Part shown: piece after piece, positions 7,044 through 30,037 of the stretch
Layout: every line of letters starts with the position of its first letter
Numbering within the stretch: position 1 is the first letter of the stretch
DNA from: an uncultured Planctomycetales bacterium
Lineage (GTDB): Bacteria > Planctomycetota > UBA1135
Reading direction: 5' to 3'
Assembly (NCBI GenBank): GCA_964565175.1
Contig: CAZMDZ010000001.1
Coordinates: forward strand, 1 to 30,037
DNA: 30,037 nt
Notes under the pieces: model-generated
What the model was told of the DNA's origin: nothing
The model's input: the letters and a program-made list of their open reading frames with translations, nothing else
Databases searched by the model: none
Position numbers and translations under genes: made by a program

Positions 7044-7044
7044 C

Positions 7045-8031: not shown

Positions 8032-8378
8032 TCCCCCTCGCCGGGCTTGGCCTCTGCTTCGGTGCCGTTTGGCTGATCGAAGCTCAGCGGGGTTTGACCG
8101 TCGCGCAAGGCCGCTTTGACCATTGCGTGAGTGGCAGTGGGATTGGTGAAGAGCACAAAAAGCAAAACCGCGAGCAGCTTTAAGCTGTCGAGTGACCAAC
8201 CCGTTTGCAGCATGACGCCAGTGAGTATCAATGGCGCTGCAAGAGTTTCGGTGACACTGGCGGCGTGTACGCGCGAGAAGAAATCTGGTAAGCGCAAAAC
8301 GCCAACGCTGCCAGTGATCGCCAGGAAGCCGCCGCTTAAGAAGCAAATCCAACTGAGCACGTCGATCACTAGGCTCAT
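8028..8378 (-). CDS. mrpG: Mrp antiporter subunit G
   Basis: GVLRLPDFFSRVHAAS and LFTNPTATHA motifs. GGAGG RBS, ATGA overlap. Confidence 0.92.
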   Translation of the reverse strand: MSLVIDVLSWICFLSGGFLAITGSVGVLRLPDFFSRVHAASVTETLAAPLILTGVMLQTGWSLDSLKLLAVLLFVLFTNPTATHAMVKAALRDGQTPLSFDQPNGTEAEAKPGEGE

Positions 8379-8659
8379 CGAATTTCCTCCGTTTTTGAAA
8401 TCTCGGTCTCGGAGCGATCGCGTTCGAAGTAGCGCATGATGGCCACCGTGCTAACGAAGTTGACCAACGCGTAAAGCAACGCGATGTCGACGTAACTATT
8501 CCAGCCCAACGCATGACCACCAACTGCAATCAATAACACAGTGTTGGTGCCGAACATATTCGTTGCCAGCATCCGGTCGTATGCAGTGGGTCCGCCGAAG
8601 GAGCGGAGCAAGGCCAACGCCATCGACATAAAAATCGCCAGCAACGCTGCGAGGAACAT
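8375..8659 (-). CDS. mrpF: Mrp antiporter subunit F
   Basis: GPTAYDRMLA and YVDIALLYALVNFVST. ATG at 8659 lies 2 nt after the mrpE stop. Confidence 0.9.
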   Translation of the reverse strand: MFLAALLAIFMSMALALLRSFGGPTAYDRMLATNMFGTNTVLLIAVGGHALGWNSYVDIALLYALVNFVSTVAIMRYFERDRSETEISKTEEIR

Positions 8660-12893: not shown

Positions 12894-14777
12894 TCACGGC
12901 ATCAGCGTCCATTTCCATGTCACCACCCGCAGCACGCCGTCGACGGTGCCAGAAACTTTGGCGGTCAGCTGGTCGTGCTCGCGGAAGTATTCGATGTGAG
13001 TGGGGAAGTCGTGATCCTCGTTGACGAAAACGGCACGGCGGGGTTCGAGCGTTTGTAGGACGAACTCGGCGGGCTCTTGGTTGGAAGGAAAGGCGCGGTA
13101 GACCACCAAGCCATCGCGCTCGACGATTTCCAAATGCTCCAAACTAAAACCGCCTTCGGCGTTGCAGTCGCGGTGGGTGCCGACCATGACGCCATTGCGC
13201 GGCGCGAACCAGCCTTCTTCTTGGACACTCTTTTTGTGTCTGGAACTCCAGTGACCAGCCAGCCAACGCAACTGATTGATTTTTGATCCCCCATTGACCG
13301 TTGGCATTTTGGCGCCGATTTCCTTTTGCCAGTCATGGAGTTTAGCCAGCAACTCGTTGCGCTTTTCCTTGTGTTGAGTTGCCAAATCAAATTGTTCGCT
13401 AGCGTCCACATCCAAACGGAATAGTTCAACCTTGCCGCTATCAAACCACTCAATCAACTTCCAATCGCCGTCGCGCACCGCCGCGCCGGGTTGGCCTCCT
13501 TGATTTCCGTAATGAGGGTAGTGCCAAAAAACCGGCCCGCGCTGGTACTCCTCATGCCCCAACAAAGGACCGACAAAGTTGACGCCATCCACATGCTGCG
13601 CCGGAGTGCTTTGGATTCCAACCAAACTCAAAATGGTTGGATAAAAATCGGTGCTGGTCACCACCGCACTGCAGACCGAAGGCTGCTTCACCGAGGGATC
13701 CACCGAGGTCATCCCTTCCGGCAAATGCACAATCAATGGCTCGCGGATTCCGCCTTCATACAACCAACCTTTACCCGCACGCAGCGGCAAGTTGCTGGTT
13801 GGACTGCCTTCCGAAGTGGATAAGCCGCCGTTGTCCGAGGTGAAAATCACAATGGTGTTTTTGTCCGCGCCGGTTTCGGCCAGCGCATCCATCACCGTAC
13901 CGACCGCCATGTCCATGGCTTCGACCATGCCGGCATAAACCGCGTGGTTCTGCACCATGCGCACCCGACGCTCCCCTTCTTTACCCCACGCCTCGGCCGG
14001 TCCGGCCTCGCGCTTTTTCAAATACTTCTGCTTCAAATCCTCACGCGCAATCAACGGCGTGTGCACCGAGTAGAACGACAAGAATGTAAAAAACGGTTGG
14101 CCTTGATTTGCGCGAATAAACGCCGCCGTTTCATTCGCCAAACGCTGCGGCAAATGCTCGCCGTCGGGGCCGTCTTGCAAACGCGGGTTGCCATACGGAG
14201 AGAAGTATTTTTTGCCGCCATAAGGACCGCCACGAGTGATGCCGCCTATGTTGACGTCAAAACCATGGTCTTCGGGCCAAAATCCTTCGGGGCCTAAGTG
14301 CCATTTGCCAGCGAAAAAAGTTGCGTAGCCATTGGCCTTCAACGCTTCGGCCAACGTCACTTCTTCATGCGCCATCCGATCGGTGTATTCCGCGGGCAGC
14401 AGCGCGGTTTTGCGCTTCCACTTCTCCGGTTGGTTGAATCGACCTTCGTTGATGTAGTCCGTAATGCCAGTCCGTGCTGGATACTTGCCGGTCATGATGC
14501 TCGACCGCGTTGGGCTGCACACCGGGCACGAAGCATAAGCATTGGTGAAGCGTGTCCCGCCATCGGCTAACCGCTGAATGTTGGGCGTGTCATAAAACGT
14601 ATTCGGATTGTTGGGCGACACATCCATATAGCCGAGGTCATCCACCAAAATGAAAACTACATTCGGCGGCGCCAACCCCTGCTCTTGAGCCAAAGAACTC
14701 GCTCCCACCAAGAAACATGCTGCGATTGCCGCAAAGGCCGTCGCCCAGCCCGAAGGTCTTTCCGCGCGATGGATCAT
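12894..14777 (-). CDS. Formylglycine-dependent (Cys-type) sulfatase fused to a C-terminal DUF6265-like domain
   Basis: Signal peptide, FILVDDLG, CSPTRSSIMTG and FAGKWHLG. The last ~130 aa (LRWLAGHW..EEGW..AVFVNEDHDFPTHIEY) resemble DUF6265. Confidence 0.88.
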   Translation of the reverse strand: MIHRAERPSGWATAFAAIAACFLVGASSLAQEQGLAPPNVVFILVDDLGYMDVSPNNPNTFYDTPNIQRLADGGTRFTNAYASCPVCSPTRSSIMTGKYPARTGITDYINEGRFNQPEKWKRKTALLPAEYTDRMAHEEVTLAEALKANGYATFFAGKWHLGPEGFWPEDHGFDVNIGGITRGGPYGGKKYFSPYGNPRLQDGPDGEHLPQRLANETAAFIRANQGQPFFTFLSFYSVHTPLIAREDLKQKYLKKREAGPAEAWGKEGERRVRMVQNHAVYAGMVEAMDMAVGTVMDALAETGADKNTIVIFTSDNGGLSTSEGSPTSNLPLRAGKGWLYEGGIREPLIVHLPEGMTSVDPSVKQPSVCSAVVTSTDFYPTILSLVGIQSTPAQHVDGVNFVGPLLGHEEYQRGPVFWHYPHYGNQGGQPGAAVRDGDWKLIEWFDSGKVELFRLDVDASEQFDLATQHKEKRNELLAKLHDWQKEIGAKMPTVNGGSKINQLRWLAGHWSSRHKKSVQEEGWFAPRNGVMVGTHRDCNAEGGFSLEHLEIVERDGLVVYRAFPSNQEPAEFVLQTLEPRRAVFVNEDHDFPTHIEYFREHDQLTAKVSGTVDGVLRVVTWKWTLMP

Positions 14778-16438
14778 TTCTCGCCCTCCGCCGAGTCGTC
14801 TTGGTATTGCGCCTGCAATTCGCCCAACTGTTGGGCCATCGAAACGGCAAGGTCGCGGTATTCAGGGTCTAAGTACAAATTGTTCAATTCATCCGGATCA
14901 TTCTTCAAATCGAACAACTCCCACTCACCCACCTGGTAATAACGAATTAGCTTGTAGCGGTCAGTGCGAATGCCGTAATGCCGTTGCACCTTGTGTACAT
15001 CGGGGAAGCCGTAGTAGTGGTAATAAATCGAATCGCGCCACGATTCCTTTGCCAACGACAACTCCAAAATCTCGGCATCGTCTAAGTTGAAGTCGCCGCT
15101 GTTTTGCAAGAGCGGCAGCAAGGACATGCCTTGAAAATCATCCGGGACCTCCGCTCCTGCTGCCTGCAAAAATGTCGGTGCATAATCCAAGTTTTGCACC
15201 AAGTTCTTATTCACTGTTCCCGGCGGCGTTTTCCCTGGCCATTTCACCACTAGCGGCATCTTCAACGACTCTTCATACATCCAACGCTTGTCGTACCAGC
15301 CATGATCACCCAGAAAAAACCCCTGGTCCGAAGAATAGACCACGATCGTATTTTCAGCCAAACCCGCGTCTTCTAAATACTTCACAATTTTGCCGACGCT
15401 ATCGTCGACGGCTTTTGAAGTGCGCAAATAGTTCTTCATGTAGCGCTGATACTTCCAACGCACCAAATCCTTGCCGGTCAGATTCGCGTCGTAAAAAGCT
15501 TTGTTCTTCTCGGCATAACCCGCGCGCCATTTTTCCAGCTGCTCAGGCGTCATCTTCTTCAAATTGCGAAACCCAGATTTGTCGGTGGCAATTCCCGAAA
15601 TGGTGTCTTCCCGCGGATCCAAAAATAAATCATAAGCCGAATTCATGTGCCGATCGATTTCCATCTCTTGCCCAGCTGCCGGGCTGGCGTTGTCGGCATA
15701 ATCATCAAACAAAGTATCTGGCACAGGCAACTCGACGTCGTCCCACAAATTCAAATAACGCAGCGGCGGCATCCAGTTGCGATGCGGGCCCTTGTGTTGC
15801 GCCATCAGCAAAAACGGCTTGCCATCTTTACGCTGCTGCTCCATCCAACCAATCGCCATGTCGGTGATCAAGTCAGTGCAATAACCCTGCACCCGACGAC
15901 GCCCTTCCGGCGAAATAAAATCCGGGTTGTAGTAGTCGCCCTGGCCCGGCAGGATGTCCCAGTAATCAAACCCCTGCGGATCGCTATGCAAATGCCATTT
16001 GCCAATCATCGCCGTTTGATAGCCCGCTTTCTGCAACAACTTCGGAAAGGTAACCTGGTCCCCATCAAATCGATTGCCGTTGGCCATAAATCCATTTTTA
16101 TGACTGTGCTTGCCGCTCAAAATCACCGCCCGGCTAGGCCCGCAAATCGAATTGGTGCAGAAGCTGTTACGGAACAACATGCCTTGCGACGCAAGTTGAT
16201 CAATGTTCGGTGTCGGATTGAGTTCGGCGTATCGGGTTCCATAAGCGCCGATCGCATGCGGCGCGTGATCGTCGCTAAAAATGAAAACGATGTTGGGTTG
16301 CTTTCTGGCGCTGGCGTCGGCGGCTTGAGCCACGGCCGGCGCGGCGGCGGTGTGTGCGGCGGCCGGAGCGACGGCGGCTTGGGCGACGACCGGTGCGGCG
16401 AGCAACAGCGATGGAATTTGGAAGTGGAGCAGCTTCAT
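14774..16438 (-). CDS. Cys-type sulfatase, N-acetylglucosamine-6-sulfatase-like
   Basis: FIFSDDH, CGPSRAVILSG, MIGKWHL, YQRYMKNYLR, SSDQGFFLGDHGWYDKRWMYEES. Ala-rich spacer after the signal peptide. The subfamily call is by resemblance. Confidence 0.9.
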   Translation of the reverse strand: MKLLHFQIPSLLLAAPVVAQAAVAPAAAHTAAAPAVAQAADASARKQPNIVFIFSDDHAPHAIGAYGTRYAELNPTPNIDQLASQGMLFRNSFCTNSICGPSRAVILSGKHSHKNGFMANGNRFDGDQVTFPKLLQKAGYQTAMIGKWHLHSDPQGFDYWDILPGQGDYYNPDFISPEGRRRVQGYCTDLITDMAIGWMEQQRKDGKPFLLMAQHKGPHRNWMPPLRYLNLWDDVELPVPDTLFDDYADNASPAAGQEMEIDRHMNSAYDLFLDPREDTISGIATDKSGFRNLKKMTPEQLEKWRAGYAEKNKAFYDANLTGKDLVRWKYQRYMKNYLRTSKAVDDSVGKIVKYLEDAGLAENTIVVYSSDQGFFLGDHGWYDKRWMYEESLKMPLVVKWPGKTPPGTVNKNLVQNLDYAPTFLQAAGAEVPDDFQGMSLLPLLQNSGDFNLDDAEILELSLAKESWRDSIYYHYYGFPDVHKVQRHYGIRTDRYKLIRYYQVGEWELFDLKNDPDELNNLYLDPEYRDLAVSMAQQLGELQAQYQDDSAEGEK

Positions 16439-16480
16439 CTTCGGTAGGGTTCGCCCAAGTTAGCAGGTATGCTCGGAGAG

Positions 16481-18631
16481 ATGCGCTTTGCCCCCCTCCT
16501 TTTGTTGGCGGCTCTATTTTCCGCCGCGCTATCCACTCCCACCCGCGCGCAGGATGCCAAGCCAAATATCGTTTTCATCATGGCGGACCAAATGCGCGCC
16601 GACTTCCTCGGGTGCGCGGGGAATGAAGCGGTGCACAGCCCCAACCTGGATCGTTTCGCCAGCGAAGGTGCGCATTTCCGCCGGGCGTATGCCTCCACCC
16701 CTTCTTGCACCCCAGCACGCGCCGCCATTTTGACCGGCCAGTCGCCCTGGAGCCACGGCATGCTCGGCTATTCCCAAGTGGCCGAGCGCTACCCGATTGA
16801 GCTGCCCCGGCTGATGAACGAGGCGGGCTACTACACCTACGCCATCGGCAAGCAACATTTCCACCCCCAGCGAAACACCCACGGCTATCAGGGAATGGAA
16901 TTAGACGAATGCGGACGGCGTCGGGATCCGGGGTTTCTTTCGGATTACCACCGCTGGTTCGATCAAGTGGCCGGCCGCCAAGATCCTGACGCAACCGGCT
17001 TGGGCTGGAACGATTACCGCGCCAAGGCTTATCGCTGGCAAGAGGAACTGCATCCGACTGCCTGGACCGGTGAACGCGCTACCGAGTTCTTGCATGAATA
17101 CGATCGCGATCAACCGTTTTTCCTGAAAGTCAGTTTCGCACGGCCTCACAGCCCTTATGACCCGCCCTCCAATTTTTTGGCGAAAGTCGACCCGAAGACG
17201 GTGCCAGCAGCGGCGGTGGGCGATTGGTCCGACGAACAATTTGGTCATTTCCATCAGCCCGAAAAGTTCTCCGCCCCACGCAACAACTTGGGCGCCGAAG
17301 TCAATCAAGCGGCACGCCGAGCCTATGCAGCGAACATTGCTTTTATCGATGAGCAAATTGGCAACATACTTCAGGTTTTGGAAGCACGAGGCATGCTGAA
17401 GAACACTTTGCTGATTTTCACTTCCGATCACGGCGACATGCTCGGCGACCATCACCTTTGGCGCAAAACTTATGCCTACGAAGGCTCGGCAGGAGTTCCC
17501 ATGTTGATGTACTGGGGCGACGACGTCCTGCGTGCGCCGCGCGGGCAAGTGCGCCATGAATTGGTTGAGCTTCGCGATTTACTTCCCACTTTCCTCGACG
17601 CGGCGGGCGCACCGGTGCCGGACGCAGTCGATGGTTTGTCGATGCTGCATCCAGTCAAAGGCCTGCGCACGGCGTGGCGCCGATGGTTGGATTTGGAGCA
17701 CTCGACCTGTTATTGGCCGGGGAATAACTGGACCGCGCTGACCGATTCGCAATGGAAGTACATCTTTCATGCCTTTGACGGCAGCGAGCAATTGTTCGAC
17801 CTGAAGGCAGATCCGCAGGAGTTAGTCGACTTGTCCGCGAGTCAAGATCATCAGCAAGTTCTCAAGCAATGGCGCGGACGCATGGCCGAGCACTTGGCGC
17901 CGCGCGGTGATGCATGGGTGGCCGATGGCGCCCCAGCGATACGCAAGAAGGGTCAAGCCCGAGGGGCGAATTATCCCGCCTCGGAAGAGAAGAAGAGCAA
18001 GCAAGAACCAGCGATGGCATCGCCTCAATCGGTCAGCGGAATTTATCCACACTTGGCATTCTTCAATGACGAAAACGAATGCGGAACCGGGGCACTGGTG
18101 CCGTGGGCAGATCGATTATGGGCAATCACCTATGCACCGCACGCGCCGCGGGGGTCGTCGGACAAGTTGTATGAGATCACGCCCGAGTTGGACTTGATCG
18201 TGCGCCCGGAATCGATCGGCGGCACCCCAGCCAATCGCATGATTCACCAGGAGTCGCAGCAGTTGTTTCTTGGACCTTACGTGATTGATAAGGATCGCAA
18301 CGTACGCACCATTCCCTATGAAAAAATGTTTGGCCGCCACACGGGCAACGCGCGCCACCTCACTGACCCGGCCAATAAAATTTACTACGCAACCATGGAA
18401 GAGGGTTTGTACGAGGTCGATGTCCATACCCTCGACGTCAACGTGTTGTACGCAGACAACCACGGCGACAAGGCGATGGTCCACTCCGCCGCTCCGCAAT
18501 CTGAGTTGCCCGGTTACCACGGCAAGGGTCTGTACTCTGGCCAGGGACGGGTGGTTTATGCCAACAATGGCGAAGTTGGAAAAACCGTGTTTACCGATCC
18601 TTCGACGCCGTCGGGATCGTTGGCGGAATAG
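16481..18631 (+). CDS. Cys-type sulfatase fused in frame to the N-terminal part of a large uncharacterised domain; ends at a premature TAG
   Basis: GGAGAG RBS before ATG 16481, signal peptide, FIMADQMR, CTPARAAILTG, TSDHGDMLGDH. The sulfatase domain ends at ~17980. After a linker a different domain starts at SVSGIYPHLAFFN (~18030). Confidence 0.85.
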   Translation: MRFAPLLLLAALFSAALSTPTRAQDAKPNIVFIMADQMRADFLGCAGNEAVHSPNLDRFASEGAHFRRAYASTPSCTPARAAILTGQSPWSHGMLGYSQVAERYPIELPRLMNEAGYYTYAIGKQHFHPQRNTHGYQGMELDECGRRRDPGFLSDYHRWFDQVAGRQDPDATGLGWNDYRAKAYRWQEELHPTAWTGERATEFLHEYDRDQPFFLKVSFARPHSPYDPPSNFLAKVDPKTVPAAAVGDWSDEQFGHFHQPEKFSAPRNNLGAEVNQAARRAYAANIAFIDEQIGNILQVLEARGMLKNTLLIFTSDHGDMLGDHHLWRKTYAYEGSAGVPMLMYWGDDVLRAPRGQVRHELVELRDLLPTFLDAAGAPVPDAVDGLSMLHPVKGLRTAWRRWLDLEHSTCYWPGNNWTALTDSQWKYIFHAFDGSEQLFDLKADPQELVDLSASQDHQQVLKQWRGRMAEHLAPRGDAWVADGAPAIRKKGQARGANYPASEEKKSKQEPAMASPQSVSGIYPHLAFFNDENECGTGALVPWADRLWAITYAPHAPRGSSDKLYEITPELDLIVRPESIGGTPANRMIHQESQQLFLGPYVIDKDRNVRTIPYEKMFGRHTGNARHLTDPANKIYYATMEEGLYEVDVHTLDVNVLYADNHGDKAMVHSAAPQSELPGYHGKGLYSGQGRVVYANNGEVGKTVFTDPSTPSGSLAE

Positions 18632-19950
18632 GTAGATGGTGAATGGAATGTGGTGCTGCGCAATCAATTTACCGAGGTGACTGGTCCAGCTGGAATCTAC
18701 GGTAGTGAAGATCCGGCCAACGACCCGATTTGGAGTATCGGTTGGGATCACAAGTCTTTGATTTTGATGCTGCTCGACAAAGGCGAGTGGCACCGCTTCC
18801 GCCTACCAAAAGCTAGCCATAGTTACGACGGCGCCCACGGCTGGAACACCGAATGGCCGCGAATTCGTGACATTGGGGAAGAGGATTTGCTGATGACCAT
18901 GCACGGCATGATGTGGCGTTTCCCGCGCACATTTTCTGCGGCCAACACAGCTGGCATTACACCGCGATCGACTTACCTGAAAGTGATCGGAGATTTTTGT
19001 CGCTGGCAGAATCGGGTGGTGTTCGGCTGCGACGACACCGCACGCAGTGAGTTTCAGAATAAGCGCAAAGCCAAAGGCGAAATTGCCGCCCCGCGATCGC
19101 AATCAAATTTATGGTTTGTCGAACCAGAGCAGTTGGACCACCTGGGTCCGGTGTTTGCGCGCGGCGCGCTGTGGTTGAACGAAGAGGTTCAAGCTGGGCA
19201 AGTTTCCGACCCAATGTTGGTCCATGGTTTTGATTCGCAATCCATGCACTTGGTCACCGACAAGCCGAGCAAAATCTACATAGAAGCGGACCTAACAGGG
19301 CGCGGCGACTGGCGCGTGGTCGACATCTTGAAGGCCGACGGCTATCAATGGCACAACCTTGCCCTGAGCCCAACCGTGCAGTGGGTTCGCTTGCGCAGTA
19401 AAGAAAAGTTGGACCGGGCAACCGCATGGTTCCAGCTGCAAGAACGGCGAAGCGACCTGTTCCCCATCCTTTCTTTTTACGACAAACCAGCGCCTCCCCC
19501 CGAAGCGTTCCTGGGCATGCCATTGGTTTTGGATCGGGAAGCTGTCGGCGGGGTCATTCGTGCGCGAGGCGAAAAAGAAGGCACGCTGCATTTTGCGGCG
19601 CGAGTCGCCTTTGCCGCGAAGTTGCCACCGAGCGCGATTTATTTCACTTCGGCGGAATTTTTTATGAACTACCCGCCGAAAATGCCGGCGGCTTTTCCAA
19701 GATCAAGCCGATCAGCGCCCACCACTTGCAGATCAGTGATTTCTGTAGCTACCGAGGCATGCTCGTCATGTCGGGCGTCAGCTTGGAGCGGGCAAGCGAA
19801 GCCGATAGCTCGCACATCATTCTCAGCGACGACGGCCAAGCCGCGCTCTGGGTGGGCGCAGTCGATGACTTATGGGAGCTTGGGAAACCACGTGGCGAAA
19901 TGGGGCTCTTCCCCTTTGGGAGAGTGAAAGCAAATGTGCCATCCGAGCCT
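18632..19950 (+). pseudogene. Continuation of the uncharacterised domain: in frame after the TAG, frameshifted at ~19600, truncated at ~19950
   Basis: Reads SLAE*VDGEWNVVLRNQFTEV in one frame. Protein-like sequence switches at ~19598-19605 from the 18650 frame (..TLHFAA) to the 19426 frame (SRLCREVATERDLF..GAVDDLWELGKPRG). Confidence 0.75.
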
Positions 19951-22082
19951 GGCTTGAGCAACGGGTCGCCGGAGCCAGCAAACCGGCATGTGAGCTTGAC
20001 TTGGTATTCGCCGGTGGGGACGAGTAGGTAAGTCGAACTGCGGAAGACTTCGCCCGGCTGCAACGATGTGCCAAGGTCCAGTTCGGTACCGTTGATCTCG
20101 AGCACGATTTCCTCGGCGGCAATTTTGTCACCGCATTGGAAGATGAACTCGACCGGCTGCGGGGCAAAGGGATTGCTGACTGTGAATTCAGTGGAGGTCG
20201 GCATGCCAGGCTGTTCGCGGCGCGTGTGCTTGCCTTTGAAGGAGTGGACTTCGCTTAAGCTCCAACCTTCGTTGGTTTCGCGCAGGGTGAATTCACGCTT
20301 GATGTCTTGCAACGCTGGCAGCATTTCGGGCGGGAAGGCGTTGGCCATGCGCGCCGCTTCCCAAATGCGAATTTTCTTGAGGATGGCGTCGCCGTTGGCA
20401 TTGGCGGCGATGACGTCGGCGCCGGTGACGAAAGCAAAGCCAGCGTTGAAACCTGCGGACCGTGCCATCAACCATTCCGCGTCTTCCAGCGAAGTTTGGC
20501 CGGTCATTTTGAACCAACCAAGCATGCGCGGCATCAGGTTGCGCTCGAAGTAATGCTGGTTGAGCAGACGATAATGCGTTTGGCTTTCGCGAAAACCTGC
20601 GTACCAAGGCTCGCCCCAATTCATCCGCGTGTAGATATGCCAGAAGTAATGGCCCGGATTGCTGGCATCGTTGATGACGGCGCCGCGCAGTTCAGGTTTG
20701 AGCGCGTCCATCCACCATTGCGCCATCAATGTGCGGCCGTATTGCCCCAAGCCAGTCGACCACATGCCTTCCAAACCATCAAACGAGATCTGCCGCAAGC
20801 CGGTTTGGTTGAACAAGTCGGCCAAAGTTTCGGCGACGCGTTTGCTTAACGAATAATCGGTGAGGAAGGTGCGGTAAGCATGGTCAATCAGCTTGTGCAC
20901 CTCAGCGCCAGTTTCGTGTGCGGCAGCCGTCGTGCCGAATGCGCCGCGTTTGCAACCCGTCAGTCGATCACCATCGACCGTTTGGTATTGAATGAGTTCG
21001 TCCCCAATCCGCGCCGTGCGCAACGCTCCTTTGTTTTCAAACCAACCGCCGTCGGCGACCACCAATTCATCCGCACTGGCGCCGACCGACTCCATCAACT
21101 CGGTCGTGCCGACTACCGCCAAACCAGGATCCGGAACCGGCGTCACCAGTGGATCGTTGGTGGTAATGAAATTGCTCAAAGTGTGCAAACCCACATCGAC
21201 GCCTTCGGCCCGCGCCTTGTCCACACACGCTTTCATCCCCTTCCAACCATTGGGGAATTGCTGCGGGTTGAGTTCGAATTTACCCCAGGTGCGGAACGGT
21301 CCACCGTGATAAAGGTAGCGCAACCCGGCCTTTTTGGTCAGTGCAATGACGTCGTCGATATTGTCTTCGCTGAAACTGATAATCAAATACGCCGCCGTCG
21401 CTGAACGCGAAGTTTTGCCCCATTCGCCATCAATGATCGGATGCGGCAGTCCTTCTGCCACTTCAATTTTGCCGATGGTTTGCAGGGTTTGTTCCACCGG
21501 ACACCCAAACAACGCAATCGCCGATCCAATCAGTCCACCATCCTCTACCGCTGGCGCCACAAATCGTTTGTGCCCCCAGTTTTCAATCACCCGCGTCTTC
21601 GACCGGTCGCGCACATAAGCCTGAATGGTGCTGCCAAAATCGGTCTTCAATGCCGCGTCTCCGCGATACAACAACTTCGTCTCCTTGCCGACGTCGACGT
21701 AATCACTCTGCGCAAAAATGTTGTAGTTGGGCATCTGATCGTGATCATGCTTCGCCGCTCCGCCCATCGTTTTTGGGTTGAGCGCCTGCAAGCCGATCGC
21801 GAATTTCTCGCCGCGCACCACGCCAATCGTTTCGCCGATGGTTTTTTGAATGGTGGTCGGGTAAGGCCCCCACATCAACAACTCGGCTTCGGCGGGTCCA
21901 CTCGGACTGACGCTGACCACCTCCAACCGCAGATGACTCTTCTTCTGCTCAACCTGCAGCTCCACGTCGGCCGCTGCGAACTTCAGCGTTGCTCGGTCTT
22001 CGTGCCAAGTGACCGCAGTCGGCAACTGATACTCACCCTCTACTTTCAATCGAGCCATCGGCGCTGGCTGCCCATTCGGCAA
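19749..22082 (-). CDS. Large uncharacterised protein, putative TIM-barrel glycoside hydrolase; 5' end and probably 3' end damaged
   Basis: 777 codons rich in Trp/Gly/aromatic motifs (WGPYPT, YLYHGGPFRTWG, VGLHTLSNF, ISFDGLEG, RMNWGEPWY, PRMLGWF). TTG start with no RBS or signal peptide. The last ~65 aa look like the shadow frame of the opposite gene. Confidence 0.7.
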   Translation of the reverse strand: MPNGQPAPMARLKVEGEYQLPTAVTWHEDRATLKFAAADVELQVEQKKSHLRLEVVSVSPSGPAEAELLMWGPYPTTIQKTIGETIGVVRGEKFAIGLQALNPKTMGGAAKHDHDQMPNYNIFAQSDYVDVGKETKLLYRGDAALKTDFGSTIQAYVRDRSKTRVIENWGHKRFVAPAVEDGGLIGSAIALFGCPVEQTLQTIGKIEVAEGLPHPIIDGEWGKTSRSATAAYLIISFSEDNIDDVIALTKKAGLRYLYHGGPFRTWGKFELNPQQFPNGWKGMKACVDKARAEGVDVGLHTLSNFITTNDPLVTPVPDPGLAVVGTTELMESVGASADELVVADGGWFENKGALRTARIGDELIQYQTVDGDRLTGCKRGAFGTTAAAHETGAEVHKLIDHAYRTFLTDYSLSKRVAETLADLFNQTGLRQISFDGLEGMWSTGLGQYGRTLMAQWWMDALKPELRGAVINDASNPGHYFWHIYTRMNWGEPWYAGFRESQTHYRLLNQHYFERNLMPRMLGWFKMTGQTSLEDAEWLMARSAGFNAGFAFVTGADVIAANANGDAILKKIRIWEAARMANAFPPEMLPALQDIKREFTLRETNEGWSLSEVHSFKGKHTRREQPGMPTSTEFTVSNPFAPQPVEFIFQCGDKIAAEEIVLEINGTELDLGTSLQPGEVFRSSTYLLVPTGEYQVKLTCRFAGSGDPLLKPGSDGTFAFTLPKGKSPISPRGFPSSHKSSTAPTQSAAWPSSLRMMCELSASLARSKLTPDMTSMPR

Positions 22083-22119
22083 GTAGTTCCGTCCGTCTCG
22101 GAGGTGGAGGTTGGTGGGA

Positions 22120-22175
22120 GTCCGGGAGACCAGGTGTCCGGGGGTCCGAGCGTTCGAGCGTTCGAGCGTTCCACT
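22120..22175. repeat. Degenerate 8-bp tandem repeat, 7 units
   Basis: gtccggga/gaccaggt/gtccgggg/gtccgagc/gttcgagc/gttcgagc/gttccact read directly from the sequence. Confidence 0.75.
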
Positions 22176-22215
22176 AAGTGGCGGAAGTAGCCGCGGGCAC
22201 TCTTCCCAAAAAGCG

Positions 22216-23622
22216 CTATTCCTGCTTCTGGAAGACAGCCAATGCCTCGTTGTGAAGGGCGCGCAAAGTCTTCATCTGCTCAGGCTCGCGGCCGCGAATG
22301 TTCGTTTGCTCGCCGACGTCTTCCGCCAAGTTCACCAGGAAAAACTTATCCCGTTCATCGGCATCGGCCAATCGACTGCGGTCGGTGTCGCGCGGATTGA
22401 CGATCAATTTAAACTCGCCGCTGCGCACAGCCCATTGATCACTCACCAGCCAATGCAAAACTTCATGTGGCGTGGTGGCCGTGGCATCGTGAATCAACGG
22501 CACCAAACTTTCACCGTCCAAGTCCATGCCAGGATGCAGCGGAATGTTGGCCAACTCGGCGAGCGTCGGCAGCCAATCGGTGGCGTGGGCAATTTGGTCG
22601 CGGAGTTGGCCGCCCTCAATCCGTCCCGGCCAAGTGATGGTGGCAGGCACGCGGATTCCACCCTCAAACAAACTAAACTTCGACCCGCGGAAAGGCCCGG
22701 CGCTGCCACCGCCATAAAAGGCGCGCTGCTCGGTGGAGTGCCCATGATCCGACTGGAAAACAACGATGGTATTTTCACGCTGACCCAAACGGTCGACCTC
22801 GGCCAAAATCTGACCAAGCTGTTCATCCATCGTCGCCAACAAAGCCAAATAATCACGCCGACGCTCCTCCAATTCGGCATAAGCCTCGGTGGCAAAATGC
22901 GCGCGCCACTTTGCTTTGCCCTGTAGCGGATAGTGCGGAGTATTGAACGGCAGGTACAAGAAAAATGGCGTGCGCCCGGGTGGCGGCCGACTATCGACGG
23001 ACGCCGCCATCAATTGGTTATGCGCTTGATTGTCCTGCAAGAAGTCGATGGCTTCCCGCACCACCATGTCGCCGAAGTGGCTGCCGTCCTCAAAATACTC
23101 TTCATCCCCGCGCCACAGATCGTGACGGTTTGGACCATTCCAATAAAAGAAGTGCGACCAGTTATCGATGCAGCCTTGGCGATGACCAAAATAGCGATCG
23201 AAACCTTGCTGCAACGGACTCTGCGGCAGCGTGGTTCCTAAATGCCACTTCCCGATCAGCGCAGTTTGATAACCGGCGGCTTGGAAAACTTCGGCGATGG
23301 TGGTTTCATCGAGCGGCAAACCAGGACCGCCAGGCGAGACATTGCCCGGCACTCCGCAGCGCCATGGATAACGACCGGTCAAAAGCGCGGCGCGTGAAGG
23401 CGAGCAAATCGAAGAGGCGGCATAAAACTGAGTGAAGCGGATGCCGTCGGCGGCGAGTTGGTCGAGCGTGGGCGTGACCACATTCGGCGTGCCAGCCGCG
23501 CCGATGTCCATGGTGCCCTGGTCGTCGCTCAAAACAACAATGACATTTGGTTGTTGCCCCACGGCATCTGCGGGGAATGCCAGCAACCAAGCCGCGATTG
23601 AGATTTGCAGGAAAATCTTCAC
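22216..23622 (-). CDS. Cys-type arylsulfatase A-like sulfatase
   Basis: Signal peptide, VVLSDDQG, CSPSRAALLTG, LIGKWHLG, QSDHG, GSKFSLFEGGIRVP. Confidence 0.92.
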   Translation of the reverse strand: MKIFLQISIAAWLLAFPADAVGQQPNVIVVLSDDQGTMDIGAAGTPNVVTPTLDQLAADGIRFTQFYAASSICSPSRAALLTGRYPWRCGVPGNVSPGGPGLPLDETTIAEVFQAAGYQTALIGKWHLGTTLPQSPLQQGFDRYFGHRQGCIDNWSHFFYWNGPNRHDLWRGDEEYFEDGSHFGDMVVREAIDFLQDNQAHNQLMAASVDSRPPPGRTPFFLYLPFNTPHYPLQGKAKWRAHFATEAYAELEERRRDYLALLATMDEQLGQILAEVDRLGQRENTIVVFQSDHGHSTEQRAFYGGGSAGPFRGSKFSLFEGGIRVPATITWPGRIEGGQLRDQIAHATDWLPTLAELANIPLHPGMDLDGESLVPLIHDATATTPHEVLHWLVSDQWAVRSGEFKLIVNPRDTDRSRLADADERDKFFLVNLAEDVGEQTNIRGREPEQMKTLRALHNEALAVFQKQE

Positions 23623-23657: not shown

Positions 23658-26600
23658 ATGCCGGTGATTTCCTCCATCATTCTGTCACTCGCCATTTGCT
23701 CCCCCATGGCTCCGCAAGACCGAGCCCAGGCCCCAGACTTCGATCGCGAAGTGCGGCCGATCTTGGCGGACAAGTGCTTCGCCTGCCACGGTCCCGACAA
23801 AGATGGACGCAAAGGCAAGCTGCGGCTGGACAAACGCGATCGCATCTTGGGCATTTCCGGTGGCGACGCGGTTGTCGTGCCCGGCGACCGGGAAGACAGC
23901 GAGTTGTGGTACCGCATCACCACCGACTACAGCGACGACTTGATGCCGCCCACCGATCACGGCAAGTCGCTGACCGCCGCTGAGATTGAGATTCTTGGCA
24001 AGTGGATCGACGACGGCGCACCATGGGCGGAGCACTGGGCATTTGTTTCACCAGTGAAGCCGAAACTGCCGGAAGTCGCCAACCGCGAATGGATCCGCGA
24101 TGAGGTGGATACTTTTGTCTTGGCCAACCTCGAGAAGAATGGATTGCAGCCCAATCACCACGCAGAAAAGGGCAAATGGCTACGTCGGGCGAGTTTGGCG
24201 CTGACCGGCTTGCCGCCGACCGAGATGGAGGTGCGCGCATTCCTCGGCGACTGGTCGGCGGATGCTTACGACAAGGTGGTCGATCGGTTGTTTGCCTCGC
24301 CGGCTTACGGAGAACACATGGCGTCGGCATGGCTGGATGGTGCTCGCTACGCCGACACCAATGGCTATCAAAATGATTTTCACCGGGCGCAGTGGCCGTG
24401 GCGCGACTGGGTGGTGCAGGCTTACAACAACAACTTGCCCTTTGATCAATTCGCCACCTGGCAGTTGGCCGGGGACTTATTGCCTAACGCGAGCAATGAG
24501 CAAATTTTGGCGACCGGCTTTGGCCGCAATCATCGCACCGTAACGGAGGCGGGATCGCTGGATGAAGAGTGGCGCGTCGAGAACGTGGTCGACCGAGTGG
24601 AGACGACGGCGACGGTGTTCATGGGGTTGACGATGGGTTGCGCGCGCTGTCACGATCATCGCTACGATCCGATTTCGCAAAAGGAGTTTTATTCGTTCTA
24701 TGGGTTTTTTAATTCACAGGATGAAAAAGGTGTTTATCAAGAAACACGCGGCAACGCAGGCCCGATGGTCAGGGTGCCGTCGGCATCGGACAAAGCGCGG
24801 TTGGCAGAATTGCGCCGGGCGAAAAAAGCGGCGCGAATGAGAAATGAGGAAGCAATTGCCAAGCGCGGAGAAGCCTTTGAAAATTGGCAGGATATGTTAG
24901 AAAAGCAATCGCTTTCGAATAACGACTCATGGACCGACATACTGCGGTTTAATCAAAACGAAGACCCGCGACCCAATTTCGGCGGCGAAGTCTTTTCACC
25001 GGAGCACGATCAATCGTTCACCATTTCGGCTTGGGTCCGACCGCGTTCCGACGGCACCGTGATCGGCAAAATGGATGCGGAGGCTGCGTATCGGGGAGTG
25101 GATTTGACCTTGATCGAAAACCGCAAGATTTCGGTTCACCTCATTCATGACTGGCCGAACAATGCCATCAAAGTTGTTTCGAATGAGGCTCTGGACGATG
25201 GAGTATGGAATCACGTCGGCGCGAGTTATGACGGCAGTGGCAAAGCGTCGGGGGTGCAGTTGTTTTTGAATGGCCGGGCGATTGATGCGCGAGTGGCAGC
25301 CGACAACTTGGACGGCAGCATTCTGACGGACACACCGCTGCGCTTGGGCCAGCGTTCGACTCGCGAGCATCTTCGCGGCGACCTTCACACGGCGCGCTTT
25401 GAAATGGCAACCTCGGATGAAGCCAAAGTACGAATGCACGTCAACGCCGACGCTCATGGTTTGTGGAGACGGTTGGGTTCGAAAGTAATCTCTGCGGACA
25501 GCAACAACGATGGGGGTTCCAAGGCTTCGGCTAGCGAACTCAGTGGTCAAGACCTAAGCGAAGTTTTTGCTTCATGCTTTCATCAAGAAAGTCGTCAAGC
25601 GCGACTGGAAATGCAACGGCAGAACAAAGCTATGGCGGAGTTTGAAAAGAACATTCCGTCCGTGATGGTGATGAAAGATCGCGCCGAGCCGCGGCCGACT
25701 TACTTGCTGAATCGCGGCCTGTACGATCAACCGGTTGAAGAGGAAGAAATTCAAACCGGAGTTCCAGATGTGCTGCCAGGGTGGCAGCAGTCTTACCCGC
25801 GAAACCGCTTGGGCCTGGCCCAATGGATGGTTTCCGCGGAAAATCCACTGACCTCGCGAGTGGCAGTGAACCGCATCTGGCAACAGTTGTTTGGCACAGG
25901 CTTAGTCAAGACTTCTGAGAACTTCGGCATTCAAGGATCGCGGCCGAGTCATCCGCAACTGTTGGATTGGCTGGCGTTGGAATTTGTTGAATCCGGCTGG
26001 GATGTACAAGCTTTGCAAAGACGCTTAGTGCTGTCGGCCACTTTCCGTCAAAGTTCGTCGGCGACGGCCGAAAGCTATGCCAGTGACCCGGGCAACCTTA
26101 AACTTGCCCGTGGACCTCGTTATCGATTGAGCGCCGAACAGGTACGTGATCAAGCGTTGATGGCGAGTGGATTGTTAGTGCAGAAGTTAGGCGGTCCGCC
26201 CACGCGTCCCCATCAGCCGCCTGGTTTATGGACCGAATTGGCGGGCGGTGCTGGCCAAGGCCCTTATGTGCAAGATACCGACGATGGCTTGTGGCGGCGC
26301 AGCCTGTACACCCACCGCAAACGCTCGGTCCCCCACCCGACGCTTACCACTTTCGATGCACCCAGTTTTGAGGTGTGCTTGGTTCGACGTCCACGCACCA
26401 ATACACCACTGCAGGCGTTGGCAACCTTGAATGATCCTACTTATGTGGAGGCGGCACGGCGCCTTGGTGAACGCATGATGGATTTGGATCGCTCCAACGA
26501 ACAACGCTTGGCGTGGGCATTTTCGCTTTTGACCTGCCGCCCGCCTACGGCGAAAGAGCAGACCATTTTGAAGGATGCGCTCTATGCAGAATTGCGCTAC

Positions 26601-26681
26601 ACCCCCAAAGACCCTGCTGCCGCGTGGACTGCAGTTGCGGCAATCCTTCTTAACTTGGACGAGGTGTTGAACTGTGACTAA
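23658..26681 (+). CDS. Planctomycete cytochrome c / DUF1549 / LamG-like / PSD1 (DUF1553) protein
   Basis: [21 protein letters not shown] (CxxCH, 23775-23789), [24 protein letters not shown] (24639-24653), LamG-like [38 protein letters not shown]. Confidence 0.92.
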
Positions 26682-28089
26682 ATTCGACGAAAAACTGAAG
26701 CGCGCCGGAATGCACCTCAACCGCCGCAGCTTTTTGCGCAACAGCATGGGTTTGCTGGGCGGTGCCGCACTAACCGATCTTGGCCTGGCCGCAACTCGTC
26801 CGCGCATCGGCAAAGCCAAGCGAATTATTTACCTATTCCAATCCGGCGCGCCGTCGCAATATGAAACCCTGGATTGGAAACCCAAAATCGCCGAACTGCG
26901 CGGACAAGATTTACCCGCATCGGTGCGCATGGGCCAACGCTTGACGACGATGACTTCGGGGCAAGACAAGTTTCCAATGGCCAACTCGCTGTTCGGCTTT
27001 CAGCAAAACAAAGAGTGTGGCACTTGGATCAGCGACATGTTGCCGCACACCCGCGCCATTGCCGACAAGATTTGCGTGATCAATTCGATGCACACCGACG
27101 CGATCAATCACGATCCGGCGGTGACCTTTTTCCAAACCGGATCGCAGCTTGCAGGCCGACCGAGTTTTGGCGCGTGGTTGTCGTATGGCTTGGGTTCGAT
27201 GAACCAGGACTTGCCGACTTTCATGGTGATGATTTCGCGCACGGTGTCGGCGCAACCCTTGTACGACCGACTGTGGGGACCAGGGTTCTTGCCCTCGCAA
27301 CACCAGGGTGTGAAGCTGCGCAGCGCGGCCGACCCGGTGCTTTATTTGCAGAATCCGGGCGGCGTCACCCGGGCGATGCGGCGCGAGCAGTTGGACAAAT
27401 TGAACGAGCTCAATCGCGAGCGCAATCAGGTCAGCGGCGACCCGGAAACGTTGGCGCGGATCGAGCAGTACGAGCTGGCCTTCCGCATGCAAACGGCGGT
27501 GCCTGAGCTGACCGACATCCGCGACGAGCCTGGTCACGTGCTGGAAATGTACGGTCCGAAGGTTCATGAACCCGGAAGCTATGCGCGTAACTGCTTACTA
27601 GCAAGACGGATGGCCGAGCGCGACGTGCGCTTTGTCCAGCTCTATCACATGGGTTGGGACCACCACGACAACCTGCCGTCGAAAATGCGCGCGACTTGTG
27701 GCGACACCGATCAACCCACCGCGGCGCTGATCAAAGACCTCGAACAGCGCGGCTTGCTCGACGACACGCTGGTCGTTTGGGGCGGTGAATTCGGCCGCAC
27801 CGTTTACTCGCAAGGGCAGCTGACTGCCGAAAATTACGGCCGCGATCACCACCCACGTTGTTTCAGTATGTGGATGGCTGGCGGCGGCATCAAAGGTGGG
27901 ATCAGCTATGGCAAAACCGATGACTTCGCTTACAACATCGTTGAAAACCCGGTCGACGTTCACGATCTACATGCAACTTTGCTGCATCAGCTCGGCATCG
28001 ATCACCAACGCCTGACCTACCCCTTCCAAGGCCGCGACTTCCGTCTCACCGACGTCGGCGGCAAAGTTCTGACGCCGCTGCTAGCTTGA
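26674..28089 (+). CDS. DUF1501 domain protein with Tat signal
   Basis: NRRSFLR leader, [58 protein letters not shown] start overlaps the upstream gene. Confidence 0.92.
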
Positions 28090-28096
28090 TAGAGAA

Positions 28097-30037
28097 ATGA
28101 TGATGCTGTCCCCCCTACTTTTGACCGCGCTGGCGATGGGGATGGCATCGCCGCAGTCCGATGGACAATGGCTAAGCGGTTATCAAACCGAAGTCAAAGG
28201 CGAGCAAATTGACTATGAGTCGGCGCTGCCGGATGTGCGCTCGGCATTGCTGGTGAGGTCGCTGGAAGCGGAAAGATCGATCGCTTGGCAGACACCGGTA
28301 ATGCCCGAAGTTGTGCCTGCCGAAGGCGTCGCGCTGACCTGGTTGTTCGGCATGGATGCCAATCCGGAACAGCATGAATTCAAGTTGTTGCTGAACGGGA
28401 AAGAGTTGTTGCGCTTCCACAATCCGGCGACTGCAACAACCGAATCGTGAACGACCGAGGGCATCGCATCTCTCAAATTCCGCCCCACCCACATCGACCG
28501 CCATCAGGATGTATTCGGTTTTGCGGTGCTGCAGCTGCCAGCGGAGTTGATCACGGCTGGCAAGGCGATGACCTTGGAAGTCGTCGGCGAATCGGCGGGG
28601 AGTTGGATTTGGTACATGACCTTCCGCCACTCGCCGCAAGAGTCGATTCGCATGACCGAGCACAACGCTCTGCGGCGGACCGAAGATATGGGTGCTCCCG
28701 GTGCGTTCCAGGAAATGATGATGGAAGTGGTGCACTTGGGCGAACCGATGCGGGTGCGAGTGGAGGCAAGTTGGGGCTTTGTTTCTGCACACGATTTGAA
28801 ACTTGGGGCCAATCGCATTTGGATTCATCGCGGCTACGAAGTCGCGGAACCGGTCAAACCGTGGGTCATCCACCTTGTCCAACACAGTCACACCGACCTC
28901 GGTTACACCCGGCCGCAAACCGAAATCCTCGCTGACCATCTGCGCTACATCGACTTCGCGCTGGATTATTGTGATCAAACCGATCACTTCCCCGACGACG
29001 CCAAGTTCCGCTGGACATGTGAAGCAGCGTGGCCTGTGCAGGAATATTTGCGCTACCGCCCCGAAGCGCAAATTGAGCGCCTGCGCCAACGCATAGCCGA
29101 AGGTCGCGTGGAACTGACCGCCATGTTCGCCAACCTCAGTGAACTGCTCGACGACCGCGCTTGTTCCGCCAGCCTCGCCCCCATCGCCGAAATGCGCAAG
29201 CACGGCCTGCCGGTGGAAAGCGCGATGCAGAATGACGTCAACGGGATCCCGTGGATCTACGCCGACCTACTTTCCGAAATGGGCGTGCGCTATTTGACCA
29301 TGGGCGAGCACGGCCATCGCGCGCTGATTCCCTTTGATGTGCCGACTGCGTTCTGGTGGGAGTCGCCGAGCGGTTCGCGGATGTTGGCTTGGAGGCCAGA
29401 TCATTACAACACCGGCAATTTCTGGGGTGTGCATTCCGGCAGCGTCGAAGCCGTCGAGCCTGCGGTGTTCCGCTACCTTGGTGAAATCGTTGAAAACGGT
29501 TACACCATGGATCACATTTCGGTTCAGTACGGCGGTGTGTTTTTGGATAACGCCCCGCCTGGAATCAAAGCTAATGAGTTGATCCGCGATTGGAATGAAA
29601 AGTACATCTGGCCGAAGATGCGTTCGTCGCTGGGTACAGAATTGCCAAAGTGGGTTGAGCGAAATCATGGCGACGCACTTCAAACTTTCCGCGCGGCATG
29701 GCCGGATTGGTGGTCAGATGGAATTGCATCGGCGCCTCGCGAAGTTGCGGCAGTGCGCAAAACGCAGAAGCAATTAGCCGCGACCGAATCGATGTTGGCG
29801 ATGGCGCAGTTGGCCGGACACAAGATCCCTCAACAGTTACTGGATCGCGTCGCCCGCACTTGGGAGCAGCTCGTGATTTACGGCGAGCACACTTATGGCG
29901 CCGCTGAATCGGTGACGGATCCAGGTGCCGAAAATACCAAGGTGCAGTGGGCACAGAAATCGGCGTTTGCTTGGGACGCGGTGAAGGAAGCTGCCATTTT
30001 GCAAGAGGCTGCCTTCGGGTTATTGCAAGACGCGTGG
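28097..30037 (+). pseudogene. GH38-like (alpha-mannosidase family) glycoside hydrolase with an in-frame TGA at 28448-28450; runs off window end
   Basis: Signal peptide from ATG 28097. After ..TES* the same frame stays open to 30037 and encodes LVQHSHTDLGY, FRWTCEAAW, GRVELTA, AMQNDVNG, FWWESPSGSRMLAW and EHTYGA. This long frame is missing from the ORF track. Confidence 0.82.

Follow-up and report, generated by a model that had tools for sequence, protein, structure and literature searches.

What kind of enzyme, if any, is encoded beside the sulfatase genes of an uncultured Planctomycetales bacterium, and does the gene still work? The window, meaning the whole stretch of DNA analyzed (30,037 nucleotides, contig CAZMDZ010000001.1 of assembly GCA_964565175.1), carries on its minus strand an open reading frame (ORF; 19749-22082) of 777 codons that starts at TTG. 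Our reading, which as a whole we hold to be reasonably probable, is that the product belongs to an unnamed family of glycoside hydrolase (GH)-like proteins of ~800 amino acids with a retaining mechanism and a role in fucose-glycan metabolism, and that the copy in the window has recently been inactivated.

An earlier examination of the letters alone (the sequence-only reading) had described an uncharacterized protein of ~700 residues at 19950-22082. Alignment with the closest relatives agrees closely, confining homology to codons 1-710, that is, nucleotides 19953-22082. Neither a stop nor a frameshift interrupts this body of 710 codons, which is homologous over its full length to proteins of 770-815 residues, among them P0002 at 87% identity. 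The motifs quoted in that reading are all present: FSEDNIDDVIALTKKAG at residues 237-253, GMKACVDKARAEGVDVGLHT at 282-301, IGDELIQY..RGAFGT at 359-384, and ISFDGLEG at 432-439. The gene and its parts are as follows.

19953-22082, minus strand: conserved coding region of 710 codons (TTG at 22080-22082; ATG appears first at codon 9, 22056-22058)
21498-22082, minus strand: N-terminal beta-sandwich, residues 1-195, incomplete (DSSP of the models, alignment of relatives and their intact N-termini)
20298-21497, minus strand: predicted (beta/alpha)8 barrel, residues ~196-595 (DSSP; Foldseek matches to GH101, GH31, GH36, GH129, and GH13 barrels)
20859-21155, minus strand: inserted beta module, following barrel strand 3, residues ~310-408 (model)
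20778-20780, minus strand: codon of D435 (ISFDGLEG), the proposed nucleophile (conservation; strand 431-435)
20610-20612, minus strand: codon of E491 (NWGEPW), the favored candidate for general acid/base (conservation; low-confidence hhalign)
20667-20669, minus strand: codon of D472, the alternative acid/base candidate on strand 5 (conservation)
19953-20297, minus strand: C-terminal beta-sandwich, residues 596-710, incomplete (models; alignment of relatives)
19749-19952, minus strand: non-homologous read-through tail of 67 codons plus stop (residues 711-777), antisense to the remnant of a convergent plus-strand gene
22083-22215, minus strand: spacer of 133 nt from the stop of the upstream sulfatase gene to the ORF (frame translations)

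Predicted fold

AlphaFold2 modeled the window protein with a predicted local distance difference test score (pLDDT) of 92.4 and a predicted TM-score (pTM) of 0.90, and the intact P0002 with values of 92.3 and 0.90. In the window model a beta-sandwich (residues 10-195) leads through a long helix (196-210) into a barrel that extends to ~595 and is followed by a C-terminal beta-sandwich (597-702). DSSP places the barrel strands at 232-234, 256-259, 296-302, 431-435, 470-473, (486-487), 519-525, and 547-552, and a beta module of ~100 residues (310-408) is set between strand 296-302 and helix 410-427. The beta-rich N-terminus, alternating barrel segments, inserted beta module, and C-terminal beta-sandwich of the sequence-only reading are each borne out by this model, which is a triosephosphate isomerase (TIM) barrel between beta-sandwiches and no other fold.

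Foldseek returned 392 matches in the PDB at E ≤ 1e-3 for the window model; the results described here are the best 50 of these, together with the 50 listed for P0002. In both sets all 50 are glycoside hydrolases or transglycosidases. The matches of the window model include the alpha-galactosidase 8k1a, GH31 YicI-type xylosidases and sulfoquinovosidases, ZgGH129, FpGalNase, TmGalA, EngBF, SpGH101, and GH13 neopullulanases. For P0002 the list is headed by the GH101 enzyme EngBF (6qep; E 7e-16, query-normalized TM-score [TMq] 0.40), followed by lmo2446 (GH31), FpGalNase (GH36), SpGH101, sulfoquinovosidases, TmGalA, and GH13 enzymes. A barrel flanked by N- and C-terminal beta-sandwiches, as in GH31 and GH36 of clan GH-D, is recovered with a Foldseek probability of 1.00 (E 1e-13 to 1e-9 to YicI, sulfoquinovosidases, FpGalNase, and TmGalA), and the layout that had been likened to clan GH-D, GH101, and GH129 reappears in these neighbors, GH101 coming before GH31, GH36, and GH129. 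Since TM-scores lie at 0.3-0.48 and identities at 7-12%, the similarity to known GHs is one of fold or clan and not of family membership.

Comparison with known families

Among the GH101 enzymes the P0002 model also matches 3ecq (E 7e-13), and the window model matches 5a55 and 3ecq (E 1e-9). Common to both groups are a multi-domain plan, in which an N-terminal beta-sandwich precedes the (beta/alpha)8 barrel and beta-sandwiches follow it, and a GH101_dom-5-type accessory module, carried here by some distant members. They differ in that identity is ~9-10%, the GH101 chains are much larger (1,100-1,350 residues), and the module inserted here is a different one. GH101 enzymes are retaining, with a barrel Asp as nucleophile and a Glu as acid/base.

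The GH36 and GH27 enzymes (FpGalNase, 8x1b/9awt; TmGalA, 1zy9; Foldseek E 5e-13 to 7e-10, target-normalized TM-score [TMt] ≤0.48) have the same three-domain order, and here too a conserved Asp would end strand 4, by the weakly anchored strand numbering given below. The differences are that H-G-G stands here for DD, S-F-D for K-x-D, and a Glu candidate for the Asp acid/base, and that a module of ~100 residues follows strand 3. An insert after strand 3 is likewise present in GH31 (YicI, YihQ-type sulfoquinovosidases, lmo2446; E 1e-12 to 1e-10), where the GH31 signature W-x-D-M-N-E and KTD416FGE of YicI are paralleled by the D-x-x-E of D435..E438, and HWGGD482C is resembled by NWGEPW. Unlike GH31 proteins, the family gave no match to PF01055 even when the insertion was removed. 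ZgGH129 (5opq; E 1.3e-12, TMq 0.33, 12% identity) has beta domains flanking a barrel of GH101-like form, and the Pfam GHL1-3/GH129 model matched neither the window protein nor 61 family members. ZgGH129 is a 3,6-anhydro-D-galactosidase of the pathway for carrageenan, a sulfated algal galactan; GH129 also includes an alpha-GalNAc-ase of Bifidobacterium.

Family size and sequence searches

A word-indexed search retrieved 3,193 homologs with scores to E = 0, so that homology is far beyond chance. With a profile searched exhaustively, 2,508 representatives of 50%-identity clusters were recovered at E ≤ 1e-3, 856 of them at ≤ 1e-30, and two peptide patterns located relatives in at least 573 species genomes. 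The family occurs mainly in Planctomycetota, Verrucomicrobiota, and Bacteroidota; the best 80 loci are spread over Planctomycetota, Verrucomicrobiota, many Bacteroidota, Armatimonadota, KSB1, Gemmatimonadota, and Balneolaceae. Cultured hosts include Algoriphagus formosus, Larkinella arboricola, L. terrae, Lunatimonas salinarum, Negadavirga shengliensis, and Maribellus sp. CM-23. Those homologs that bear a name in their sources are all called "hypothetical protein," the fusions described below being called "alpha-L-fucosidase" after their GH29 part.

For the window protein Pfam gave no family above cutoff, the only sub-threshold hit being PF01261 (14.4 bits, versus a cutoff of 31.1 bits), and NCBIfam gave no match. 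Among PDB sequences phmmer found none, and two family profiles found nothing significant (best E 0.46). The Pfam models of GH31, GH36, GH27, GH101, and GH129 produced no hit at E ≤ 10 with the window protein, with 61 diverse members, or with the barrels of 10 diverse members from which the inserted module had been cut before rescanning. The protein had earlier resisted placement in a named family, and by Pfam, NCBIfam, single-sequence and profile searches of the PDB, and the insertion-deleted barrels it still does. A literature search for a characterized member found none, the nearest being the GH_New2 preprint considered below.

Candidate active site

Numbering of the barrel strands was approached through two alignments. 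A profile of 61 family members aligns "aGlkylyhp.gpFkswGhFelnkkkfpng" to "AGVKQITLDdGWYTNAGDWALNPEKFPNG" of FpGalNase (E 0.46), the sole PDB enzyme group that it touches; the match is not significant, and it falls on the canonical succession of strand 2, FPxG loop, and helix 2. With hhalign, residues 195-299 align to residues 246-344 of YicI, comprising the linker helix and strands 1-3 (E 0.009-0.03, probability 2-5%), so that LPHPIIDGEWGKTS is paired with LPPAWSFGLWLTTS and FELNPQQFPNG with FEWDPLTFPDP of YicI. Past YicI strand 3 hhalign was unreliable in low maximum-accuracy (low-MAC) and global modes, matching for example a chance "FDG," and a profile of YicI homologs was no help (120 proteins, all ≥82% identical; effective number of sequences [Neff] 1.37). 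Because both alignments anchor there, albeit weakly, 256-259 is taken as strand 2 and 296-302 as strand 3; 431-435 (RQISF-D), being the next barrel strand, would then be strand 4, ending in D435. Strand 4 bears the nucleophile in GH27, GH31, GH36, GH13, and GH101.

Conservation was scored on 150 representatives of 50%-identity clusters, aligned with hmmalign to the family hidden Markov model (HMM); this replaced a MAFFT alignment of multi-domain representatives, which was too gappy (4,262 columns). Position 435 is D in 127/130 and E in 3/130 (98% D). D435 is the probable nucleophile in the modeled barrel, and the earlier choice of the Asp of SFDG, still a candidate, gains support from strand-4 topology, weakly anchored as it is, and from this conservation. 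Other well-conserved residues are K223 (95%), E491 and D310 (both 92%), and E438 and H300 (both 91%). The His residues H300, H389, and H482 are conserved as well.

For the general acid/base E491 is the favored candidate, ahead of D472. It is E in 92% and D in 4%, and it follows the two-residue strand 486-487. In a low-confidence extension of the hhalign alignment MNWGEPWYAGF lies opposite VHWGGDCYANY of YicI, which holds the acid/base D482. From D435 to E491 there are 56 residues, compared with 66 from D416 to D482 in YicI; the spacing of nucleophile and acid/base in GH27 and GH36 is 55-60. D472 would, on strand 5, fit the GH13/GH101 arrangement; it is invariant in the window's own subfamily but only 42% D and 19% E family-wide. 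At the clan GH-D acid/base position after strand 6 the 150 representatives have no conserved Asp. All of the conserved candidate active-site residues are present in the window copy.

Inserted beta module

The core of the module (residues 357-395; G-D-E-L-I-x-Y...R-G-A-F-G-T, in the window IGDELIQY...CKRGAFGT) matches Pfam PF23666 (Rcc01698_C) in 31 of the 61 family members (best E 1.5e-7); the match of the window copy, at E 0.09 and 13.5 bits, lies below the 27-bit cutoff. As judged from these profile matches, the module resembles a phage-tail or gene transfer agent (GTA) domain. In RcGTA the C-terminal region of the "megatron" baseplate protein Rcc01698 is a structural, fiber-binding domain (PMC7296036). 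It is there a part of the tail baseplate, whereas the matching stretch here lies inside an enzyme-like barrel. No charged residue in the family is more conserved than E362 (99%) and R379 (98%), which both lie inside the module, and we infer that these two are hallmarks that stabilize its fold. They might nevertheless contribute to the active site, as GH13 domain B and GH31 insert 1 do.

Truncation and decay of the locus

The window copy is incomplete at both ends. Some 44 N-terminal residues common to all close relatives are missing; in the relatives they form a short signal peptide and a T-D-x-F...G-H-F-T-x-F-V-D-x-R-D-G block, and neither is encoded in any of the three frames upstream of 22082. 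After K710 (...GSGDPLLK) the relatives continue with L-E-M-R-T... plus ~15 residues, whereas the window protein continues with 67 unrelated codons. In the model of the intact P0002 the missing parts are the signal helix 2-9, strands 15-18, 22-26, and 31-37 of the N-terminal sandwich, and strands 753-760 and 764-767 of the C-terminal one; the blocks 11-40 and 751-770 have a mean pLDDT of 87-98. Both ends are kept in all seven close relatives from other metagenome-assembled genomes (MAGs).

By blastn, positions 22097-19952 of the window are collinear with 10118-12263 of L001, the syntenic locus of P0002. Relative to L001 the window lacks ~290 nt at the convergent 3′ junction, located at ~19950-19953, and ~250 nt inside the convergent plus-strand gene, and its 5′ region is ~40 nt shorter and cannot be aligned to that of L001. 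The junction at 19952 is crossed without differences by Logan contigs of three runs from one marine-metagenome study, and the 5′ region by those of two runs, X1 and X2. Misassembly as the origin of the truncations is ruled out by these independent contigs over the 3′ junction and the 5′ region. The truncations are real in the population and consist of small deletions. As losses at both ends are confirmed by contigs from independent runs, the window copy is probably inactive.

Within the 133-nt spacer, which stands in place of the 5′ end of the gene with its signal-peptide codons, a perfect tandem repeat, (GAACGCTC)x3, occupies 22148-22171 (minus strand). This repeat may be a trace of the deletion or rearrangement by which that 5′ end was lost.

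The convergent gene (16469-20031, plus strand) is a broken copy of a 1,349-residue protein that is intact in L001, where an N-terminal S1 sulfatase is fused to a C-terminal region of ~850 residues (SGIYPHLAFFNDENECGTGALVPW...) without a Pfam or NCBIfam match. Its lesions are an in-frame TAG at 18629-18631, the loss of ~250 nt near 19354-19606, and the loss of ~290 nt at the 3′ end. Position 18630 is polymorphic, being G (TGG, Trp) in runs X1 and X2 and A (TAG) in run X3 and the window. Given this polymorphic nonsense codon and the two deletions, the whole locus appears to be decaying, and within it the window copy is, most likely, an allele disabled not long ago.

Domain fusions and neighboring genes

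The strongest functional link is provided by fusions to GH29, which are found at the C-terminus in 6 of the 120 top clusters; in P0085, for example, the family spans residues 1-~800 and GH29 residues 808-1140. One of the 120 contains a fusion with a sulfatase/phosphodiesterase-like domain. Among distant members there are F5/8-type-C (CBM32-like), CBM4_9, Laminin_G_3, GH101_dom-5, Ig-like, and DUF7402 modules.

Within the window the gene is placed, as first described, between sulfatase genes with PF00884, one at 22216-23622 (minus strand) and the other at 16469-18631 (plus strand). Gene order is kept in L001, which has the three sulfatases and the GH29-PA14-DUF6807 gene and in addition a GH38 gene. 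Neighbors within 10 kb were clustered and counted in 84 non-redundant loci: sulfatases were found in 19, GFO/IDH/MocA oxidoreductases with a twin-arginine translocation (TAT) signal in 15, GH29 in 11, SusD in 11, SusC in 10, and major facilitator superfamily (MFS) transporters in 7-8. The Bacteroidota member P0065 lies in a SusC/SusD polysaccharide utilization locus (PUL; L004) with genes for GH172, GH29-like, GH35, GFO/IDH/MocA, and 3-keto-disaccharide-hydrolase-domain proteins. Further loci that were inspected proved uninformative.

Two more proteins of ~800 residues without a Pfam domain are encoded in that PUL (L004:5753-8206 and L004:18374-20788). An unannotated family of ~929 residues (L080:9893-12682 and 13 similar ORFs), with no Pfam match, occurs in 10 of the 84 loci, mainly in Bacteroidota, and is another candidate for an uncharacterized PUL enzyme.

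Proposed function and alternative interpretations

On the reading preferred here, members of the family would be secreted or lipoprotein GH-like enzymes of ~800 residues that act as retaining, double-displacement glycosidases. D435, at the end of strand 4, would serve as nucleophile and E491 as general acid/base, D472 on strand 5 being the alternative. Their presumed role would be the removal of alpha-linked sugars from fucose-containing, often sulfated glycans beside S1 sulfatases and GH29 fucosidases. In the window copy small deletions have removed the signal peptide, three strands at the N-terminus, and two at the C-terminus. That the family is a candidate new GH family, with a modeled fold of GH101/GH-D type, is plausible, and the proposal of the sequence-only reading to this effect is supported as a hypothesis by the GH fold and by the absence of a known-family match in Pfam, NCBIfam, and PDB sequences. 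In its fullest form, as a new GH family that is fold-level kin to GH101, GH129, and clan GH-D, has a phage-tail/GTA-type module, and possesses a novel specificity, it seems to us quite possible, though we would stop short of calling it probable.

Several observations weigh against this interpretation. The TM-scores to known GHs are low (0.33-0.41), and none of the sequence links to known GH families reaches statistical significance. The DD on strand 2 of clan GH-D is replaced (YLYH259-G-G-P-F versus ITLDDGWY in FpGalNase), as is its K-x-D by S433-F-D435, where S occurs in 67% and Lys is never the majority. Given the location of the module, E362 and R379 might themselves have a catalytic role. 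The 19 of 84 loci with sulfatases represent a weak enrichment, a raw count not clearly higher than chance would yield in phyla (Planctomycetota and Verrucomicrobiota) whose genomes abound in sulfatases. Finally, the ratio of nonsynonymous to synonymous substitution rates (dN/dS) of the window copy matches that of intact copies. As the DD and Lys by which clan GH-D (GH27/GH36) enzymes bind O4/O6 of galactose have given way to other residues here, a plain alpha-galactoside is an unlikely substrate, and the sugar released is not predicted.

It might be supposed that the family is identical to a CAZy family created recently, or is one of its subfamilies, with structure and models still absent from Pfam and the PDB; GH_New2 is the obvious candidate. 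GH_New2 is described as a group of alpha-D-galactosidases (ZOBELLIA_334, Bovatus_03161, STSP1_01769, and B2K_10610) with an N-terminal sandwich, TIM barrel, and C-terminal sandwich, no InterPro domain, and the conserved residues W313, D345, D346, W403, K435, D437, D470, T472, and N492, and is proposed for clan GH-D (bioRxiv 10.64898/2026.05.19.726164, May 2026). The two share the three-domain layout, remote kinship to GH27/GH36, the lack of an InterPro domain, and a member in Planctomycetota; in Zobellia GH_New2 adjoins GH29, GH95, and sulfatases, and the spacing D437/D470-x-T472/N492 resembles D435/D472-A-S474/N488-E491 here. Its PDB entries, 29RM and 29SO, are absent from the copies of the PDB searched and hence could not have been hit. 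Against identity, the account read gives D345-D346 where H259-G-G stands here and K435-x-D437 for S433-F-D435, an N-terminal domain of 281 residues, three domains with no inserted beta module in the description, and a mass of 80 kDa for ZOBELLIA_334, compared with the 770-815 residues of members here. GH_New2 is reported to have GH2/GH3 partners and no accessory modules, whereas the present family has GH29, sulfatase-like, F5/8-C, CBM4_9, and Laminin_G_3 fusions and no GH2 or GH3 among its annotated neighbor clusters (part of 22 clusters annotated; 84 loci). Since residues, modules, partners, and insert differ, we judge the two, set apart by description, to be different families, and their identity very unlikely. 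Another possibility is that the barrel is catalytic yet not a retaining hydrolase of GH-D/GH101 type, being instead a lyase, a transglycosidase, a phosphorylase, or a metal-dependent, xylose-isomerase-like TIM enzyme; the last could, for example, act on 3-keto-glycosides made by the neighboring GFO/IDH/MocA oxidoreductases. These oxidoreductases are the second commonest neighbor (15/84 loci), one PUL holds a 3-keto-disaccharide hydrolase domain protein, and besides the acidic residues three His residues (H300, H389, H482) are conserved. PF01261 is matched weakly by 6 of 61 members (best E 2.9e-4; 1.3e-4, or 22.2 bits, on an insertion-deleted barrel), and GH31 includes lyases and transglycosidases, such as the cycloalternan-forming enzyme among the Foldseek matches. 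Yet GFO/IDH/MocA genes are common in these phyla, the PF01261 matches score ~14-22 bits, under the cutoff of 31.1, and are confined to a generic beta-alpha-beta stretch (residues 240-307), and for either model not one of the 50 listed Foldseek matches is a xylose-isomerase-like barrel, all being GHs or transglycosidases with flanking beta-sandwiches. We regard a mechanism of this other kind as quite unlikely, and return to the retaining glycosidase as the preferred reading.

As to the state of the window copy, it might still function from the TTG at 22082 or the ATG at 22058, in the cytoplasm or otherwise localized, tolerating its losses and the 67-residue tail. The 710-codon frame is intact, and the candidate active-site residues are all kept. 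Moreover, dN/dS against three intact relatives is 0.056-0.083, no higher than among intact copies, and a three-point estimate for its own branch gives ~0.058; relaxed selection as a sign of pseudogenization was thus not seen against these relatives (omega 0.06-0.08), with synonymous divergence (dS) saturated. Values like those of intact copies imply that inactivation was very recent or that the truncated product is tolerated. However, since dS is saturated (>1), a recent relaxation of constraint would not show in dN/dS; the signal peptide and five strands are gone, from regions confidently modeled in the intact homolog; all seven close relatives keep both ends; and the adjoining convergent gene, with its nonsense codon and deletions, is itself in decay. 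A functional copy is therefore rather unlikely in our view, and recent inactivation remains the preferred interpretation.

Implications

Fucoidans and diatom sulfated polysaccharides, both recalcitrant pools of carbon, are broken down by marine Planctomycetota and Verrucomicrobiota, in pathways of which many steps have no assigned enzyme. Because it is large, without a domain model or a structure, confidently modeled with a GH fold, and recurrently fused to GH29, the family is a testable candidate for a missing activity or a new CAZy family. If the reading is correct, its specificity may be for an alpha-linked sugar, sulfated or modified in another way, within fucose-containing sulfated polysaccharides; the cultured hosts make an activity test practical. 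The family is large and "dark" but CAZyme-like and of a familiar kind, with no surprising mechanism. The window, for its part, shows a locus that small deletions and a polymorphic nonsense codon are eroding in a marine population.

Other features of the window

The remaining genes of the window, including the flanking sulfatases, are the following.

22216-23622, minus strand: sulfatase (PF00884)
16469-18631, plus strand: sulfatase, remnant of the fusion (PF00884)
12894-16438: two further sulfatases
9202-11838, minus strand: GH29 alpha-L-fucosidase of 878 residues with PA14, fucosidase C-terminal domain, and C-terminal DUF6807
23658-28089, plus strand: PSCyt1-PSCyt2-Laminin_G_3-PSD1 protein (1,007 residues), then a DUF1501 protein (471 residues)
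28172-29203, minus strand: ORF of 343 residues without a Pfam match
1475-8529, minus strand: Mrp/Mnh-type cation:proton antiporter or NADH-quinone-oxidoreductase-like cluster (three Proton_antipo_M proteins and an MnhB/MbhD/MbhE fusion)

The antiporter-like cluster is apparently unrelated to the glycan genes. The PSCyt/PSD1-DUF1501 pair is typical of Planctomycetes and adjoins the sulfatase cluster in L001 as well.

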